Positions 2,795 to 12,893 of a DNA stretch of 32,000 nt are shown piece after piece; position 1 is the first letter of the stretch, and every line of letters starts with the position of its first letter. The notes beneath the pieces are model-generated. The model did not search any database. It saw nothing but the letters and a program-made list of their open reading frames with translations, and was not told where the DNA came from. The DNA comes from Erysipelotrichaceae bacterium (GTDB lineage Bacteria > Bacillota_I > Bacilli_A > Erysipelotrichales > Erysipelotrichaceae): the NCBI GenBank assembly GCA_030604855.1, contig JAUVVC010000001.1:180001-212000 (forward strand). Reading direction: 5' to 3'. The position numbers and the translations under genes are program-made.

Positions 2795-3847
2795 GTGCAT
2801 AAAAGCAAGACAACGATTGCGATACCGCCAGGTTCAACGATTCGTGAACAACTCCTTGACCGTGGCATGATGCAAAAAGAATTTGCAGTGAGAATGAATT
2901 TAAGTGAGAAACATATTAGCCGTTTAATCACTGGACAGGTGGAGTTGACGTATGAAGTCGCTTTGAGACTCGAATCCGTTCTCGGTATTCCAGCGCAATT
3001 TTGGAATAATTTGGAAGCAATCTATCGAGAAAAGATTGTACGTATCGAAGAAGAGAATGAAATGACTAAAGAATTGACGTTGGCAAAGCTGTTCCCATAC
3101 AACGAAATGGCTTTGCTTGGTTGGGTTGAGAATTCAAAGAATGGGGTCGATCGTGTTAAAAACTTAAGAAGCTTTTTTGAAGTGGCTCGATTGTCATCCA
3201 TTTCAGAACTTGGAATTCCAGGGATCGCCTATCGAAAAGTTGGAGAAGGGAAGAAAAGTGACTATGCACTTGCGGTTTGGTCACAAAAAGCGCGCATTGA
3301 AGCCCGTAATTATGATACATCATTGATAAATATCAATAAGCTTCATACATTATTACCAAAGATTAGAGCAATGACCTTGAAAGAACCGAAAATATTTAGC
3401 TTTGAGCTGAAAGAACTGTTTTCTGCATGTGGGATCGCTTTGGTTTTCTTACCACATATCAAAGGCTCCTTCCTACATGGAGCGACTTTTGTGGATGGGG
3501 ATCATATCGTTATCGGATTGACACTTCGAGGCAAAACATCCGATAAGTTTTGGTTCAGTCTATTCCATGAGCTGCATCATATCATTAAGGGTGATGTATT
3601 CAAACCCGTAATGGAACTCGGTGACTCAGAACTGGAAGCGGATCGCTTTGCGCGTGATGTTCTGATTCCAATGGATGCCTTTGAACGATTTATAAGCAAG
3701 GGTGTTTTCGATCAAGATACCATATTGGATTTTTCTAAAAAACAAGGAATAGCACCTGGAATCGTAGTTGGTCGCTTACAAAAAGAAAACATCATTCCTT
3801 ACAATGAATTGAATAGTTTAAAGATGGTATACGCTGTAGATGAATGA
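2795..3847 (+). CDS. HigA-type XRE HTH antitoxin domain fused to an ImmA/IrrE (peptidase M78, COG2856) zinc-metallopeptidase domain
   Basis: GTG start with GAGGAGG 7 nt upstream. The N-terminus PPGSTIREQLLDRGMMQKEFAVRMNLSEKHISRLITGQVELTYEVALRLESVLGIPAQFWNNLE is HigA/VapI-like. The C-terminal part has HELHH (nt 3566-3580) followed by SELEADRFARDVLIP, the M78 signature. Confidence 0.75.
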   Translation: MHKSKTTIAIPPGSTIREQLLDRGMMQKEFAVRMNLSEKHISRLITGQVELTYEVALRLESVLGIPAQFWNNLEAIYREKIVRIEEENEMTKELTLAKLFPYNEMALLGWVENSKNGVDRVKNLRSFFEVARLSSISELGIPGIAYRKVGEGKKSDYALAVWSQKARIEARNYDTSLININKLHTLLPKIRAMTLKEPKIFSFELKELFSACGIALVFLPHIKGSFLHGATFVDGDHIVIGLTLRGKTSDKFWFSLFHELHHIIKGDVFKPVMELGDSELEADRFARDVLIPMDAFERFISKGVFDQDTILDFSKKQGIAPGIVVGRLQKENIIPYNELNSLKMVYAVDE

Positions 3848-4222: not shown

Positions 4223-4501
4223 TTGATATCGTATGTGATATTATGGAGGTGTAAGATTAGTAAAAAGAAGAGAAGAGCAGATCGATTATTATCGGAACCA
4301 TTTCGTAGTGATGTTCGCTTCAAAGAAGTTTTTGTAGTACTTAATGATTATGGTTATTTGCTCAAAAGGTCTCGTGGAAATCATTTCATATTTGATCATC
4401 CGCAGCTTCAAAGCATTTGCATTCCAAAGTCAGAGCCTATTAAAGTTGCATACATTCGAATGATTGCTGTAATTCTCAAAAAGGAGGAGGAAGATAGATG
4501 A
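4223..4501 (+). CDS. hicA: HicA-family toxin (mRNA interferase); start codon uncertain
   Basis: ...KKKRRADRLLSEPFRSDVRFKEVFVVLNDYGYLLKRSRGNHFIFDHP... fits the long-N-terminus HicA pattern (LLxxPxxxxFxExxxxLxxxGfxxxxxxGSHxxF). The 3' end overlaps hicB by ATGA. The track start is TTG 4223, but the only good SD (GGAGG 4245-4249) points to ATT at 4256 (see findings). Confidence 0.7.
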   Translation: MISYVILWRCKISKKKRRADRLLSEPFRSDVRFKEVFVVLNDYGYLLKRSRGNHFIFDHPQLQSICIPKSEPIKVAYIRMIAVILKKEEEDR

Positions 4502-4842
4502 GTTATCCGATGCGCTTGTTTACTGTAAAGACTACGAAGGGATTTGAGTGGGTTGCTGAGTTTGTAGATTTCAAAGGATGTGTTGGAGGAGGTGATACTG
4601 CTCAGGAAGCACTTGACGCGGCATTAGTAAATCTTGATGTTTACTTGCAATACCTTAAAGAAAAGGGTGAGGACATTCCTCAACCCTCTGATTATAATGA
4701 ATGCAATGGTAAGATTGCCTTGCGTATACCAAAGTCGATGCATCGTCGTTTGGTAATGAAAGCGGATGAAGAGGGTGTGAGTTTGAATCAACTCTTGGTT
4801 TCTTATCTTGCGGAAATGTTGGGAGCTAAAAGTAAGGATTGA
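4498..4842 (+). CDS. hicB: HicB-family antitoxin
   Basis: The N-terminus FTVKTTKGFEWVAEFVDFKGCVGGGDTAQEAL is a HicB fold. The C-terminus IALRIPKSMHRRLVMKADEEGVSLNQLLVSYLAE is a ribbon-helix-helix-type DNA-binding tail. Translationally coupled to hicA. Confidence 0.8.
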   Translation: MSYPMRLFTVKTTKGFEWVAEFVDFKGCVGGGDTAQEALDAALVNLDVYLQYLKEKGEDIPQPSDYNECNGKIALRIPKSMHRRLVMKADEEGVSLNQLLVSYLAEMLGAKSKD

Positions 4843-8197: not shown

Positions 8198-8923
8198 ATG
8201 AGTCTAATGATCAAGAAATTCAGTATCTACAGCCTTTATTTCGCTCTATGGCAAGGGATCGCCATGATGGTGAACAGACCCGTGATTCTTCCAAGCTTTG
8301 TGGATGTTTTTTTACGCTTGGTCAATCTCTTGCTTACCAGTGATCTATATCTCCATGTGTCCATGACGCTACTCCGTGTCATCCAAGGTACAGCTTTAGC
8401 CTTTGTTTTGGCTTTGATTGTAGCCCTCATGACCCATGAATCCAAGCTCCTTAAAGATCTTCTAAGTCCACTTATACTCATCACAAAAACCATCCCTAAC
8501 ATCACTTACATACTCCTAGTTCTCATTTGGTTCGCTCGTGAATTATCAGTGATTGCGGTTAGTTTCTTAATCCTATTTCCCGTTCTCTACAGTCAATTCA
8601 AGACCGGCTTGGATCAAATCAATCCGGAGCTGATCGAGCTTTTTAAACTCTATCCTGAAGGTTTGATTCATAAGGTGAGTAAAGTCTTGGTTCCACTCAT
8701 CAAACCTTATCTCTTTGCAGGTTTAAAGAATGGTCTATCCTTAGGGTTCAAAGTCGGTGTCATGGCTGAGATTCTTGGCCAAGTCCAACCCGGTCTAGGC
8801 TATTTGATGCACATCGCACGCATGAATTTCGAAACAACCGATCTCTTCGCTTATACCACTATTATGATTCTTGTGGTGGTGATCATTGAGAAGGGAATCG
8901 ACCACTTTTTAATCAAAAAATAG
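8198..8923 (+). CDS. ABC transporter permease, NitT/TauT (SsuC/TauC-like) family; no partner genes nearby
   Basis: Six hydrophobic segments and a binding-protein-dependent permease layout (...GFKVGVMAEILGQ..GLGYLM...). Start trimmed to ATG 8198, with GGAG 7 nt upstream. Confidence 0.7.
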   Translation: MSLMIKKFSIYSLYFALWQGIAMMVNRPVILPSFVDVFLRLVNLLLTSDLYLHVSMTLLRVIQGTALAFVLALIVALMTHESKLLKDLLSPLILITKTIPNITYILLVLIWFARELSVIAVSFLILFPVLYSQFKTGLDQINPELIELFKLYPEGLIHKVSKVLVPLIKPYLFAGLKNGLSLGFKVGVMAEILGQVQPGLGYLMHIARMNFETTDLFAYTTIMILVVVIIEKGIDHFLIKK

Positions 8924-8924
8924 C

Positions 8925-8945
8925 TTAAGTGCAGATAAGTGGCAA
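8925..8945 (+). repeat. copy 1 of the 21-bp repeat TTAAGTGCAGAtAAGTGGCAA
   Basis: Begins 2 nt after the permease stop. Contains two AAGTG half-sites 10 bp apart (8927, 8937). Confidence 0.8.
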
Positions 8946-8996
8946 AATCTACAATTTTACACAAAGCTAAATATCTAAGTTTATTGAAGATATGAT

Positions 8997-9014
8997 GTGT
9001 TGATTAATTAACAC
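8997..9014 (+). promoter_or_regulatory. imperfect palindrome GTGTTGATTAATTAACAC upstream of phd (candidate operator)
   Basis: 16 of 18 positions are self-complementary. It lies about 35 bp upstream of TATAAT (9048-9053). Confidence 0.3.
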
Positions 9015-9073
9015 GTATAAAAACATGCTTATAGTTTTTTTGTCGTGTATAATAATTTAAAGGAGCCTATAAT

Positions 9074-9319
9074 ATGCCAAATATAAAACCAATCTCTGAT
9101 TTAAGAAACTATACTGAAGTTTTAAGTGAAGTACATGAAGACAGTCCGGTATATCTAACGCGTAATGGACGAGGTGAGTATGTCATCATTAAACTTCAAG
9201 AACTGGACAAATTGAAAGCAAGAATCCAACTTTTAGAAAAACTTGCGGAAGGTGAAGCTTCTGTTCAAGATAAAGCTTGGATCAGTGTAGATGATGTCAA
9301 TAAAATGCTTGGGCTGTAA
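9074..9319 (+). CDS. Phd/YefM-family antitoxin
   Basis: MPNIKPISDLRNYTEVLSEVHEDSPVYLTRNGRGEYVI is the Phd/YefM N-terminal signature. AGGAG lies 8 nt upstream. Confidence 0.85.
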   Translation: MPNIKPISDLRNYTEVLSEVHEDSPVYLTRNGRGEYVIIKLQELDKLKARIQLLEKLAEGEASVQDKAWISVDDVNKMLGL

Positions 9320-9322
9320 AGT

Positions 9323-9625
9323 ATGTATATAATTGATTTCTCGATATCAGCTTTACAGGACTTAAGAAACATAAAATATTATCTTGAAGAGAACTATGGG
9401 GAAAGTGTAGTTTTGGAGAAAATACGAGAAATATCTAGAAGAGTTCGTAGACTCGAACAATTCCCTTTAACCGGGGTTTCTTTATCTAACTTGGTGAAAT
9501 CTAGTCTAAATTATCGGTATTTGGTTGTAGAAAAGAATTATGTCTTTTATCGAATCGATAATAATCGAATAAAAATTATTAGAATACTAAATGAACGTCA
9601 GGACTTCATTAAGCTGTTATTCTAG
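9323..9625 (+). CDS. RelE/ParE-family toxin (ParE-like)
   Basis: 100 aa, starting 3 nt after phd. The sequence ...DLRNIKYYLEENYGESVVLEKI...LEQFPLTG...YRYLVVEKNYVFYRIDNNRIKIIRILNERQD is the ParE/RelE pattern. Confidence 0.8.
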   Translation: MYIIDFSISALQDLRNIKYYLEENYGESVVLEKIREISRRVRRLEQFPLTGVSLSNLVKSSLNYRYLVVEKNYVFYRIDNNRIKIIRILNERQDFIKLLF

Positions 9626-9791
9626 TTTAGATAAGAGACTTTATCATCAATACGATAGATATGAATGTGTAAGTAAAAGGACATACCCTTAGTTATGCCC
9701 ACTCGGGCATGCCCTCATTCTAGTGAATAATTAATAATTGCTCTTCTTAGATGAACGCTTAATCGATAAGTTTAAATTAATCAGAAATTGA

Positions 9792-9812
9792 TTAAGTGCA
9801 GAAAAGTGGCAA
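9792..9812 (+). repeat. copy 2 of the 21-bp repeat TTAAGTGCAGAaAAGTGGCAA
   Basis: 20/21 identical to copy 1. AAGTG half-sites at 9794 and 9804. Preceded by the inverted repeat TTAATCA-gaaat-TGATTAA (9777-9795). Confidence 0.8.
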
Positions 9813-9824
9813 GAATATCAAAAA

Positions 9825-9845
9825 ATAAGTGCAGAAAAGTGGCGA
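9825..9845 (+). repeat. copy 3 of the repeat (aTAAGTGCAGAAAAGTGGCgA), overlapping the -35/spacer of the ATPase promoter
   Basis: AAGTG half-sites at 9827 and 9837, 33 bp from copy 2. Confidence 0.8.
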
Positions 9846-9847
9846 TA

Positions 9848-9856
9848 TGATATAAT
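9848..9856 (+). promoter_or_regulatory. extended -10 promoter element TGaTATAAT; implies a leaderless transcript for the ATPase gene
   Basis: TG at 9848-9849 and TATAAT at 9851-9856. The ATG at 9863 is 6 nt downstream of the -10, with no SD in between. Confidence 0.5.
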
Positions 9857-9862
9857 ATTGCC

Positions 9863-11170
9863 ATGAAACGTCACTTAAGCTCTGAACTCTTAAAATGGAA
9901 GCATCGTTCGAATCGTAGACCCTTGATTTTACAAGGCGCCCGTCAGGTTGGCAAGACGTACTTGTTGAATGATTTTGGAAGAGAACATTATCAGAATGTA
10001 GCTTATTTCAATTTCGAGAGTCAATCGAGTCTAGTTGATATTTTTAAGTTTGATTTCAATCCTGAGCGGATTATTAAAGCTTTATCTTTTAGTTCAAGAG
10101 TGAGCATCGTGCCGGAATCGACATTGATCATTTTTGATGAAGTTCAGGCGTGTGAGGAAGCTCTAACAAGTTTGAAGTACTTTGCAGAAGATGCTCCAAG
10201 TTATCATATAATCGCTTCAGGTAGTCTTTTGGGTATCGCGGTTAATCGAAAAAAGTTTGCTTTTCCAGTGGGTAAAGTGGATTTAATGACATTGTATCCC
10301 TTAAGCTTTGAGGAGTTTCTTTGGGCTATGCAAGAATTTGAACTGATTGAGCGAATTCAAGCATCCTATAAAACCATGTCGGAAATGGCTGTACCTTATC
10401 ATCAAATCGCTATTGAGAAGTTATTAGAGTATTGGGTGGTTGGAGGGATGCCGGCAGTTGTGAAAACTTATCTAGAAACTCAAGATATGAATTTGGTTCG
10501 TAACGAACAGAACGTTATTTTGAATACATATCTTATGGACATGTCCAAATACAGTTCACCGAGCGAAGTTCGTAAAACCAAAATGATCTATCAACAAATC
10601 AGTTCACAATTGACGAAAGCAAACAAGAAATTTAAGTACAGCTCATTAAAAACCGGTGGTCGACAACGAGAATTCGAAGGATCAATCGAATGGCTAACAA
10701 GTACAGGGATCATGAGTCAAGTGTTTAGAATTGACCAAATCAAGCATCCGTTAAGTATTTATCAGGATGTGGAAAGCTTTAAGGCTTTTACCTCTGATAC
10801 AGGCCTATTATGCGCCATCGCTCAGGTACATCCTGAATTGATTCTGTTTCAAGACCAGAGCATTTCAGACTTCAAGGGTGGTTTGGTTGAAAACTATGTA
10901 GCGAATCAATTCACAAATATGGCGATAAACCATTTCTATTGGACTTCAGAGGGTAGGGCTGAAGTTGATTTCATTATTGAGTATAAAAATAGGATCATTC
11001 CAGTCGAAGTGAAGTCATCTGAAAACGTTCGATCACGAAGTCTATCCATTTATAAAGAACGATTCGAACCAACCCAAATGATTCGATTATCGCTTCGTAA
11101 TTTTGGTCTAGAAGGCAATTTGAAAAGCATCCCGCTTTATGCTGCATTTTGCCTAAAAAAGAGCGATTAA
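9863..11170 (+). CDS. AAA+ ATPase of the AAA_14/DUF4143 (COG1373) type with a C-terminal PD-(D/E)xK-like motif
   Basis: Walker A GARQVGKT (9935-9958); Walker B LIIFDE (D92 at 10136). The C-terminal AEVDF-x11-PVEVKS gives D369/E382/K384 (nt 10967-11014). Confidence 0.8.
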   Translation: MKRHLSSELLKWKHRSNRRPLILQGARQVGKTYLLNDFGREHYQNVAYFNFESQSSLVDIFKFDFNPERIIKALSFSSRVSIVPESTLIIFDEVQACEEALTSLKYFAEDAPSYHIIASGSLLGIAVNRKKFAFPVGKVDLMTLYPLSFEEFLWAMQEFELIERIQASYKTMSEMAVPYHQIAIEKLLEYWVVGGMPAVVKTYLETQDMNLVRNEQNVILNTYLMDMSKYSSPSEVRKTKMIYQQISSQLTKANKKFKYSSLKTGGRQREFEGSIEWLTSTGIMSQVFRIDQIKHPLSIYQDVESFKAFTSDTGLLCAIAQVHPELILFQDQSISDFKGGLVENYVANQFTNMAINHFYWTSEGRAEVDFIIEYKNRIIPVEVKSSENVRSRSLSIYKERFEPTQMIRLSLRNFGLEGNLKSIPLYAAFCLKKSD

Positions 11171-11198
11171 ATCATTAAAAAAGAACCGAAGTTCTTTC

Positions 11199-12893
11199 TT
11201 AATCATTGAGTTTAGAATTCACAAAATCCAAGACTTCATCGATGTTCACCAGTTGAACATCTTTTTCATTGCGCAACTTGACTTCAACTTGTCCATTCTC
11301 AATCGTTTTACCAACCGTGATCCGTACAGGTACACCAATCAAATCCATATCATTGAATTTAACCCCAGCACGCTCGTCACGATCATCCAAGATGACATCG
11401 ACTTTTGCTTTTTGAAGTTGTGTATAAAGACTGTTTGCTAAATCGTTCTGAGCTTCTACCTTGGTGTTGATCACAACGATCGCCACTTGGTAAGGTGCGA
11501 CTTCTTTTGGCCATACGATGCCATAATCATCATGGTGTTGTTCCACGATGGCAGCCATGCATCGACCAGGCCCAATGCCATAGGAGCCCATGATGACTGG
11601 ATTGAGTTGATTGTTCTTATCCAAGTAGTTCAAACCCAAGGCTTTGGCATACTTGTCGCCCAGTTTGAAGATATTGCCGATTTCAATCCCTTTTGAGAAT
11701 GTGATGCGTCCTTCGTTGCACTTAGGACAGACATCGCCTTCCTTGATATTGCGAATATCAGCGAAGGTGTGAACTTTGAAATCGGAGAGCTTGACGTTTT
11801 TAAGGTGATAGTCGGATTTATTGGCCCCAACTAAGAAATTGGACATCGATTTGATGCGTAGATCGGCGATGACTTTGAGTGTCGTGTTCACAGGACCTGC
11901 GAAACCCACTTTAGCGTTGGTCAAACGAACCACATCATCATTCTCTGCTAAGACAACCGATTGTGCATTGAATAGCTTCTGAAGTTTGACTTCATTGATC
12001 TCGTCATCACTGCGAACCATGATCAGATAGAACTCACCATCGATCTTGTAGATCATCGACTTGGTCATCTTTTCGAGGGGAATGTTGTAGTTATCGACCA
12101 AGTCTTTGATCTTACCCACATTTGGGGTATAGAGTTCTTCTAGTGTCATTGGATCTTCAAGTTCCAATGGTGTTTCCACACACTCCGCTACTTCAATATT
12201 AGACGCATAATCACAGTGATCACACAAAACCAAGGTATCTTCACCAATATCGGTCACCGCTTGGAACTCTTCAGAAAGCAGCCCCCCCATGACACCGGTA
12301 TCCGCACGTACGACTTTATAGTCCAAACCCATGCGATCGAAGGAGTTACGATATGCTTTATCCATCTTACGATAGGAGACTTCCAAACCATCCAAATCCG
12401 CATCAAAGGAATATGCATCCTTCATGATGAATTCACGCACACGGATCAAACCGAAACGGGGACGCGGTTCATCTCTGAACTTGGTTTGGAATTGATAAAT
12501 ATTGAAAGGGAGATCCTTATAGGACTTCACATTGCTTTGGGCTGCCATCAGGAACAATTCTTCATGGGTAGGACCTAAGACGAAAGGTTTACCAAAACGG
12601 TCTTTCAGAGAGAACATGCTGGAGCCGATCAAAGCACGACGTCCGCTTTGCTCATAGATTTCTTCTGGAATCAAAGCAGGCATCAAGACTTCTTGCGCAC
12701 CACTGTTGTCCATTTCTTCACGGATGATCTTTTCGATCTTCTTGAGCACACGATAGCCCAAAGGAAGATACATGTAGATGCCGGAAGAATTCTTTTTGAT
12801 CATCCCACTGCGGACAAGCAGATTGCCACTCAAAGAGTCTTCATCTTTGACATTTTCGCGTAGGGTATAAAAATAGCTGTTTTTAAGTTTCAT
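11199..12893 (-). CDS. proS: proline--tRNA ligase (bacterial type with INS editing domain)
   Basis: Class II motifs (FRDEPRPRFGLIRVREF, GIGPGR), an internal editing insertion and a C-terminal anticodon-binding domain. Start trimmed to MKLKNSYFYT (ATG 12893), with AGAGG 7 nt upstream. Confidence 0.95.
   Translation of the reverse strand: MKLKNSYFYTLRENVKDEDSLSGNLLVRSGMIKKNSSGIYMYLPLGYRVLKKIEKIIREEMDNSGAQEVLMPALIPEEIYEQSGRRALIGSSMFSLKDRFGKPFVLGPTHEELFLMAAQSNVKSYKDLPFNIYQFQTKFRDEPRPRFGLIRVREFIMKDAYSFDADLDGLEVSYRKMDKAYRNSFDRMGLDYKVVRADTGVMGGLLSEEFQAVTDIGEDTLVLCDHCDYASNIEVAECVETPLELEDPMTLEELYTPNVGKIKDLVDNYNIPLEKMTKSMIYKIDGEFYLIMVRSDDEINEVKLQKLFNAQSVVLAENDDVVRLTNAKVGFAGPVNTTLKVIADLRIKSMSNFLVGANKSDYHLKNVKLSDFKVHTFADIRNIKEGDVCPKCNEGRITFSKGIEIGNIFKLGDKYAKALGLNYLDKNNQLNPVIMGSYGIGPGRCMAAIVEQHHDDYGIVWPKEVAPYQVAIVVINTKVEAQNDLANSLYTQLQKAKVDVILDDRDERAGVKFNDMDLIGVPVRITVGKTIENGQVEVKLRNEKDVQLVNIDEVLDFVNSKLND

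Follow-up and report, generated by a model that had tools for sequence, protein, structure and literature searches.

A 32,000-nucleotide stretch of an Erysipelotrichaceae bacterium genome (assembly GCA_030604855.1, contig JAUVVC010000001.1, positions 180,001 to 212,000; hereafter the window) carries, at 9863-11170 on the plus strand, a gene for a 435-residue ATPase of the PDC-S01 family, in which an AAA+ core, a helical lid, a winged-helix region and a PD-(D/E)xK nuclease domain are joined in a single chain. The promoter of this gene is predicted to lie inside an array of short DNA boxes phased at 33 bp, and we consider it somewhat better than an even bet (a probability of roughly 0.55) that these boxes are a self-operator, bound by the winged helix of the gene's own product and used for autorepression, with a leaderless mRNA as a second brake. 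In the proposed mechanism, the protein would bind the boxes cooperatively, along a single face of the DNA, with its Orc1/Cdc6-like winged helix, as iteron-binding initiators do. The promoter, an extended -10 element with no -35 hexamer, would sit within the array, which has two direct copies 33 bp apart and an inverted copy over the start. The bound protein would occlude its own promoter and would thereby hold a potentially self-damaging, ATP-dependent nuclease at a low level. Loss of the usual 20-30-nt leader and its Shine-Dalgarno (SD) sequence would probably give a leaderless, weakly translated mRNA, which would be the second brake.

Two copies of an 18-nt direct repeat, TAAGTGCAGAAAAGTGGC, stand upstream of the ATPase gene on the plus strand. 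The distal box (R1'', 9793-9810) spans -70 to -53 of the predicted transcription start and contains two AAGTG motifs 10 bp apart, and the proximal box (R2, 9826-9843) follows 33 bp later, covering the -35 position and the spacer (-37 to -20). An earlier reading of the window, made from the letters alone and called here the sequence-only reading, had reported AAGTG half-sites at 9794, 9804, 9827 and 9837, and all four are present; the long repeat that it drew around them is shared over 18 nt and not over 19, the first base of the 19-mer differing between the copies. Its view that the repeats are non-random and overlap the promoter also holds, but it counted two copies where four boxes were found. 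The other two are a third direct box on the plus strand (R1', TAAGTGCAGAtAAGTGGC, 8926-8943), which has one mismatch and begins directly after the permease stop codon, and an inverted box at 9860-9877 (TAAGTGacgtttcATGGC in the minus-strand reading), which lies over the ATG (-4 to +15) about 34 bp from R2. The pattern TAAGTG-N7-RTGGC has four matches in the 32 kb, against 0.01 expected, and all four are at the ATPase locus. With R1'' and R2 as direct repeats phased at 33 bp and R2 overlapping the promoter, the arrangement is iteron-like. R1'' is kept in 14 related loci, in line with the conservation upstream of orthologues that the sequence-only reading had required. Between the window lineage and locus L002 the ATPase gene has reached a synonymous divergence (dS) of 0.81, yet R2 and the GATATG that follows it are identical at 24 of 24 positions; R1, the box ahead of R2 in that locus, agrees at 16 of 18.

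In 185,579 reference genomes a 20-mer of the box occurs only at the Erysipelotrichaceae locus and at 5395-5414 of L013, which by eye lies inside an open reading frame (ORF) of an unrelated metagenome-assembled genome; we treat the latter match as chance, a few being expected in 596 Gb. The 20-mer has no other occurrence in the window and none in viral contigs. Because it is restricted in this way, the chance match aside, the box was rejected as a dispersed repeat or regulon motif. A search of 8800-11300 against Rfam returned nothing at E ≤ 1, and Tandem Repeats Finder called no array at the boxes because their spacers differ. The inverted repeat TTAATCA-n5-TGATTAA that had been noted ahead of the boxes is indeed found at 9777-9795, but it is unconserved even in sister strains, which read TTGATTA-GAAAT-TGATTAA or TTGATCA..., and for this reason it was rejected as a functional site.

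The association of boxes and gene extends through the family. In the nearest large clade (about 50% identity to the window protein), a comparison of 80 metagenome loci shows that homology between them breaks off on the right at the stop codon and on the left at about -60 to -110; some 110 nt of upstream DNA therefore move together with the gene. This module contains the sequence TTCGTGTnATTTAGTGY, with the 10-bp distance between GTG cores seen in the window, a second pair of this kind 33 bp further upstream, and an inverted copy, TTACACGAA, in the spacer between -35 and -10. The core of the distal box is the reverse complement of the promoter-box core in 36 of 76 loci, against 17.8 ± 3.0 after permutation, a comparison uncorrected for phylogeny. 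A transposon-like unit with terminal repeats was considered and rejected because homology stops at the stop codon and no box copy lies downstream.

Direct repeats of at least 10 nt were sought in the 200 nt upstream of homologues at 30 diverse loci. Repeats spaced 32-33 bp lie upstream in 18 of the 30 loci (20 when spacings of 65-67 bp are counted too); among the controls, they occur in 7 of 352 windows taken from the flanks, in one of 30 regions downstream and in none of 30 gene interiors. In more distant homologues, from plasmid and phage collections, the design recurs with other sequences: boxes differ by subfamily, and many contain AAAAGTG. Two copies 66 bp apart are found in Parabacteroides (L099, 39% identical to the window protein, AAGTGCGGAWAAATGTAT) and Glaesserella (L098, 41%, CTTTCCTTTTGAAAAGTGT). 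Three Segatella loci carry three copies each, at 33 bp in L105 (36.5%, AAAAGTCCCTCATAAAAGTGT) and in Segatella hominis L108 (28%, AATTTGCGTATTTTC) and at 32 bp in L106 (32%, GCAGATTATTTCTCGGATTTGAGTA). Spacing is 33 bp in the phage-collection contigs L109 (34%, AAGTCNCTTGAAAAAGTT, three to four copies), L110 (30%, TGGAAAAGTGGCATA) and L111 (29%, TTTGCCCCATCTTTGAAAC, four copies). The Fusobacterium unit (L104, 41.5%) is a palindrome, ATGTGAGTATAATCACAT, present twice at 32 bp, and Vibrio and Acinetobacter (L101 and L102, 31%) have two to three CACTTTT-n8-AAAAGTG palindromes. The -35 element falls within the proximal box in L098, L107 and L109 (TTGAAAAAGTG..., 17 nt, then TATAAT). Judged by these upstream regions, homologous genes of Bacillota, Bacteroidota, Fusobacteriota and Gammaproteobacteria have arrays phased at 32-33 bp, which probably control the expression of PDC-S01 family genes. 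The phased array is apparently an undescribed hallmark of the family, no mention of 33-bp arrays having been found in the limited part of its literature that was accessible.

The co-travelling and co-varying repeats suggest that the protein binds the boxes itself. The sequence-only reading had proposed checking the ATPase as their reader, and it is now the best hypothesis, because the element stays with a mobile gene across four phyla and keeps its geometry while its sequence changes. Since the boxes cover both promoter and start, autorepression is the favoured outcome of such binding. As a broader and more tentative proposal, to which we give rather less than even odds, the PDC-S01 family may carry an iteron-like operator of two to four boxes at 33 bp, read cooperatively by the winged helix, which would set the expression of the nuclease and reveal the DNA preference of each subfamily. 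Box type was compared with winged-helix sequence at 19 loci; the result is uninformative, as divergent boxes go with globally divergent proteins. Likenesses to CiaR, PhoB, CodY and Spo0A boxes were also noticed and carry no weight in this interpretation. Autoregulation through iterons and a cognate initiator is known from the plasmid rep genes of pPS10 (RepA), R6K (pi) and RK2 (TrfA). The window resembles these systems in its direct boxes of ~18-22 bp, set whole helical turns apart beside a winged-helix gene, with an inverted copy over the promoter and start; it differs in that its protein is unrelated (AAA+ plus nuclease), the spacing is 33 bp, there are two to four copies, binding is a prediction and evidence of an origin is missing.

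The protein matches the family in domains, length and motifs. The ORF and the motifs listed in the sequence-only reading are present, with Walker A (GARQVGKT) at residues 25-32 and Walker B (LIIFDE) at 88-93 of the AAA+ core (approximately residues 18-153, nt 9914-10321), followed by the winged-helix region (approximately residues 228-310, nt 10544-10792) and the nuclease domain (residues 311-435, nt 10793-11167), all on the plus strand. The profile search that it had recommended matched both domains far above cut-off: Pfam AAA_14 covers residues 18-153 (E 8e-28, 97.4 bits, cut-off 27) and DUF4143 residues 226-386 (E 4.5e-30, 104.9 bits, cut-off 28.1). The PADLOC model for PDC-S01 (PDLC04786) matches residues 1-433 of 435, a full-length match (E 5.3e-167); an NCBIfam search found no model for the ATPase. 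A library of representative proteins holds 12,508 relatives at E ≤ 1e-3. In 138 diverse representatives (34-47% identity), Gly25, Gly30 and Lys31 are invariant, Thr32 is kept in 129, and Asp92 and Glu93 are kept in 137; the window protein retains all of them. We assign it to the PDC-S01 family (AAA_14 plus DUF4143, COG1373) as a single-polypeptide ATPase-nuclease; full-length model match, Pfam domains, length, and Walker and E...D...ExK residues are all those of the family. Nothing sets the window protein apart from its relatives; its ATPase-nuclease nature is confirmed and was already catalogued.

The catalytic residues lie in the AEVDF (366-370) and PVEVKS (380-385) motifs, with a further glutamate upstream: Glu343 (nt 10889-10891), Asp369 (10967-10969), Glu382 (11006-11008) and Lys384 (11012-11014). 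Glu343 is conserved in 137 of the 138 representatives and Lys384 in 129; position 369 is Asp in 123 and Glu in 13, and position 382 is Glu in 134 and Asp in three. The Asp, Glu and Lys whose conservation had been in question are thus, together with Glu343, kept in 93-99% of relatives. Residues 308-435 were modelled alone (predicted local distance difference test, pLDDT, 76.8), and the 24 best-ranked structural matches, as well as most of the 50 listed, are PD-(D/E)xK nucleases, among them VRR-NUC, VC1899, Bax1, DdmD, Can2, Cdn1, HindIII, McrC and Hjc. This agrees with the fold that the sequence-only reading had predicted, although the matches are modest (best E 4e-3, none at or below 1e-3; template modelling (TM) score up to 0.59). 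A profile search with the C-terminal region gave non-significant matches to Cas4 and UPF0102, aligned on the D...ExK motif, and a PDB sequence search with the full protein gave no match at E ≤ 1. Residue conservation and model together indicate that the nuclease tail is real and its active site intact. The PD-(D/E)xK assignment and the suspicion of a role in defence have therefore been borne out, but not their novelty, DUF4143 being entry 100 of a 2012 census of the fold (PMC3424549) and PDC-S01 a PADLOC family.

The full-length AlphaFold model (43-sequence alignment, pLDDT 82.8) finds its best PDB matches in the archaeal AAA+ ATPases SSO1545 (2fna) and PABY2304 (2qen) and then in Orc1/Cdc6 structures, including DNA complexes. 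Foldseek aligns it with 2qby_A, 2v1u_A, 1fnn_A and 1w5s_A over ~400 columns (E 1.6e-4 to 4e-4); the TM scores of these Orc1/Cdc6 matches are low (0.22-0.40), so the domain arrangement differs. Shared by all are the AAA+ core, the lid and the C-terminal winged-helix region; SSO1545, PABY2304 and Orc1/Cdc6 lack the C-terminal PD-(D/E)xK nuclease, and the window locus lacks a replication context. Orc1/Cdc6 binds repeated origin boxes through its winged helix. These likenesses, the iteron-like direct repeats at three helical turns beside an A/T-rich stretch, and the presence of homologues on plasmids could be taken to mean that the protein is no defence nuclease but serves as an initiator-like or maintenance factor, an ATPase of Orc1/Cdc6 type that would use the iterons beside it to replicate, partition or mobilise the DNA segment on which it is carried. 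We find this most improbable: the window gene lies on the chromosome, in the interval from a permease gene to proS, with no replication or mobility genes nearby; homologues were found in just 62 of 72,556 plasmid records; the conserved unit stops where the coding sequence does and is furnished with repeats at one end alone; and the conserved nuclease active site would be left unexplained.

The promoter is predicted from the extended -10 alone. This element, TGaTATAAT (9848-9856, plus strand), places the predicted transcription start at 9863, the A of the ATG; TATAAT ends at 9856, leaving a 6-nt gap, and the sequence directly 5' of the ATG, ATATTGCC, has no purine-rich SD, just as had been described. 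A promoter scanner made no call at this site because there is no -35 hexamer. The extended -10 is kept in all 14 related loci, and its distance to the ATG is 6 nt in 12 of them, 5 nt in L010 and 16 nt in L002, where 10 nt are inserted. Because homologues can be aligned with the N-terminus residue by residue, Arg3 being nearly invariant, 9863 is the true start. In the nearest large clade, all 76 unique upstream regions have a GGAG/GAGG-type SD and a leader of 16-33 nt, and where a -10 could be called, in 65 loci, it nearly always stands 22-40 nt ahead of the start codon. The leaderless geometry would therefore be derived and specific to this lineage. A leaderless mRNA from the ATPase gene is plausible on this geometry; that part of the earlier prediction fits, but the state is atypical for the family and absent in the 89% identical orthologue L002.

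The same absence of the leader and SD found in every nearest-clade upstream region could instead mean that the gene is silent, a decaying passenger whose translation was disabled by a leader deletion, in a locus where the ATPase is dispensable within the species (it is missing from L015) and where the neighbouring parE is decaying in many strains. We regard this as very unlikely. The ORF is intact in 14 of 14 related loci, the ratio of nonsynonymous to synonymous substitution rates (dN/dS) is 0.04-0.14, as for a gene under purifying selection, the catalytic and Walker residues are in place, and the -10, exactly 6 nt ahead of the ATG, is placed as one would expect if transcription and leaderless translation both began at its A.

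Within the large Clostridia clade L017-L096, the leader ATGGTCAGTACCTTTAAGGAGGACTG (about -30 to -1) is highly conserved, beyond what an SD requires, and could fold into a hairpin in which part of the SD is paired. At about -125, GTGTCGAAT is found in many members of the clade and resembles a Spo0A box (TGTCGAA).

The segment between the permease gene and proS is variable in this lineage of uncultured Erysipelotrichaceae (UBA8511 and relatives), and four arrangements were found. In L001 (ATPase 99% identical) and L002 (89%), the order is permease, R1, R2, ATPase and proS, with no toxin-antitoxin (TA) genes. In the window, L003-L012 and L014, it is permease, R1', phd, parE, a remnant resembling the permease 3' end, R1'', R2, ATPase and proS, with parE broken in many. 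L015 has permease, a single box, phd, a convergent pair of small ORFs and proS, and no ATPase gene; it belongs to the same species, as its proS is 99.5% identical. L016 is like L015 and has both R1 and R2. Homology with these two ATPase-less loci resumes at about 11176, close to a hairpin (AAAGAAC-cgaa-GTTCTTT, 11180-11197) that lies between the convergent ATPase and proS genes and forms the right boundary of the variable segment. The TA cassette of the window (9074-9625, plus strand) is type II, with phd at 9074-9319, parE/relE at 9323-9625, the two genes 3 nt apart, and its own promoter-like site at 9008-9035. Its profiles are PhdYeFM_antitox (2.6e-9) and ParE_toxin (9.3e-10) in Pfam, and NCBIfam agrees; an exact look-up of the ParE protein gave no match. 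ParE is intact in the window and in L008, and truncated or uncalled in many sisters (L003-L007, L012, L014), while Phd is identical at 81 of 81 residues, which suggests that the toxin gene is decaying.

Comparison with the empty sites (box regions at 6720-6795 of L001 and 961-1045 of L002, corresponding to 8926-9843 of the window) indicates that the Phd-ParE cassette is a presence/absence polymorphism, a strain-level insertion between the permease and ATPase genes. An imperfect direct duplication, which takes in a box, surrounds it. R1', its left flank, is the counterpart of box R1 in the empty sites and would be an extra direct copy left behind when the cassette inserted. On the right, the stretch at 9745-9792 (plus strand), in which the inverted repeat at 9777-9795 begins, resembles the permease 3' end (58 of 79 positions identical including the box; p ~0.01 without it) and is probably a diverged duplicate of ~40 nt of permease created with the insertion. 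The layout would fit single-crossover integration of a circular intermediate, or a template switch. With one box copy on each side of the TA cassette, a duplication that probably reaches the permease 3' end and four gene arrangements at one site, the repeats might be taken for scars of recombination, or for attachment-type sites, in a hotspot of cassette exchange, devoid of a regulatory role, the flanking copies being a duplicated target. That account is quite unlikely, since two copies at 33-bp spacing are present even in the empty sites L001 and L002, R2 has stayed unchanged at a dS of 0.81, homologues elsewhere show this phasing upstream of the gene and nothing like it downstream, and the cassette has no recombinase gene.

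After the orphan phd of L015 (6600-7330) and L016 (2022-2744), the convergent pair of small genes lies on the opposite strand and has a palindromic promoter region, TATATTATAACATATAAGTTATAATATA; from its translation, it is a candidate RelE/HigB-like toxin with an XRE-type antitoxin.

The sequence-only reading had argued that the ATPase gene lies next to a TA cassette and is hence defence-island-like. This does not stand, as neither the 99% nor the 89% identical orthologous locus has Phd-ParE and the surroundings are housekeeping genes (proS, infC-rpmI-rplT, metK and ABC transporters make up most of the remainder of the window). The TA adjacency is incidental, and on gene content the locus is a small, variable turnover hotspot in a housekeeping region, with the ATPase as an accessory gene, and no classical defence island. 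TA- or defence-like genes near the ATPase are Phd-ParE, HicB and a PD-Lambda-2_B-like protein ~6 kb away. The last is a 350-residue HTH_3 (HTH/ImmA-like) protein (2795-3847, plus strand) that matches PADLOC PD-Lambda-2_B at E 6.8e-34 and, more weakly, RmrA and capP; the HicB antitoxin gene (4498-4842, plus strand) lies ~650 nt downstream of it. Unrelated to the ATPase locus is a 458-residue ORF (19845-21221, plus strand) with Lit (lipoprotein intramolecular transacylase, 1.9e-35) and TraX (5.2e-26) domains.

Besides the plasmid records counted above, 14 of 50,697 phage records carry a homologue, and two scans of viral contigs, each made with a single protein, found one locus and none. The homologue adjoins a type III restriction-modification system on the Glaesserella plasmid (L098), adjoins or lies within ~2 kb of HipA TA genes on the Parabacteroides and Acinetobacter plasmids (L099, L102), and adjoins WYL, nucleotidyltransferase and DUF262 genes on the Segatella plasmid (L105). 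Some PDC-S01 homologues thus sit beside restriction-modification systems and TA modules. One survey (PMC12988326) describes PDC-S01 as the fusion of an ATPase with a PD-(D/E)xK domain and ranks it fourth in frequency among defence types across prokaryotes, with ~39,000 systems counted; PDC systems were nominated through 'guilt by embedding' and are described as untested candidates (bioRxiv 10.1101/2024.01.29.577857). In Thermus, an AAA_14/DUF4143 gene is induced 6.6-fold when plasmid DNA is present (PMC4406477), which is compatible with regulated expression without being specific to the self-operator model. From the family's catalogue status and the neighbours of its homologues, the role of the ATPase is probably in conflict with foreign DNA.

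Coupling of an NTPase to a restriction-endonuclease fold is also found in McrBC, DdmD, Can2/Card1-type effectors and PDC-S27, and the C-terminal model of the window protein superposes on the nuclease domains of ATPase-coupled PD-(D/E)xK defence nucleases. The window protein differs from McrBC, DdmD, Can2 and PDC-S27 in its ATPase class, in joining AAA+ core, winged helix and nuclease in one chain with no CARF or helicase domain, and, unlike them, in having no known activating ligand or partner.

Several observations weigh against the self-operator. The boxes persist beside the permease gene in L015 and L016, both of which lack the ATPase gene. A box in place of the -35 is also a classic layout for activator-dependent promoters and would suit activation just as well as repression. 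Ten of the 30 sampled loci have no 33- or 66-bp repeat, and the Fisher p of ~1e-17 for the 32-33-bp enrichment is optimistic because the compared loci are not phylogenetically independent. Likeness between boxes is no simple function of likeness between proteins: L110, 30% identical to the window protein, has the window-like GAAAAGTGGCA, whereas the 52% clade has CGTGT/TAGTG boxes. The 89% identical orthologue (L002) has a 10-nt leader, so leaderlessness is not essential. The scan of the window shows no recognised defence system adjoining the ATPase gene; this, the missing leader and SD, and the insertion of Phd-ParE in the control region make the locus unusual for PDC-S01. Finally, one PDC-S01 representative in E. 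coli B fell outside the four candidates that protected against T4, T5 or T7.

Some of these observations would suit a regulator encoded elsewhere, either an OmpR/PhoB-type winged-helix response regulator or Phd-ParE, with the boxes as its operators and the ATPase in its regulon. AAGTG half-sites 10 bp apart replace the -35 element, and half-sites one helical turn apart in that position are the classic promoter layout for response-regulator dependence; boxes remain where the ATPase gene is gone; and one box lies upstream of the Phd-ParE promoter. Such a regulator is nevertheless unlikely. Apart from the chance match in a coding region, the 20-mer is found at this single locus in the reference genomes, and a host-specific factor would leave unexplained why the gene has phased arrays, of differing sequence, across four phyla and in unrelated genomic contexts. 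Phd-ParE was rejected as a required regulator because the boxes are conserved in L001 and L002, where the cassette is absent. All four alternatives, namely the host regulator, recombination scars, an initiator-like role and a silent gene, are less well supported than the self-operator.

PDC-S01 is reported to rank among the commonest candidate defence families of bacteria and archaea, and its activity, target and regulator are all undemonstrated so far. Should the boxes not be the protein's own binding sites, the window gene would be an ordinary member of a catalogued family and its locus mainly an example of TA and defence-gene turnover at a hotspot. If they are, the boxes would explain how a potentially self-toxic nuclease is held in check, and the window gene would be an extreme version of the arrangement, its box array fused to a leaderless start. 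The boxes would also offer a ready-made DNA ligand for biochemistry and structural work, a read-out that can be mined across tens of thousands of loci, and a direct experimental handle on what PDC-S01 proteins recognise in foreign DNA.

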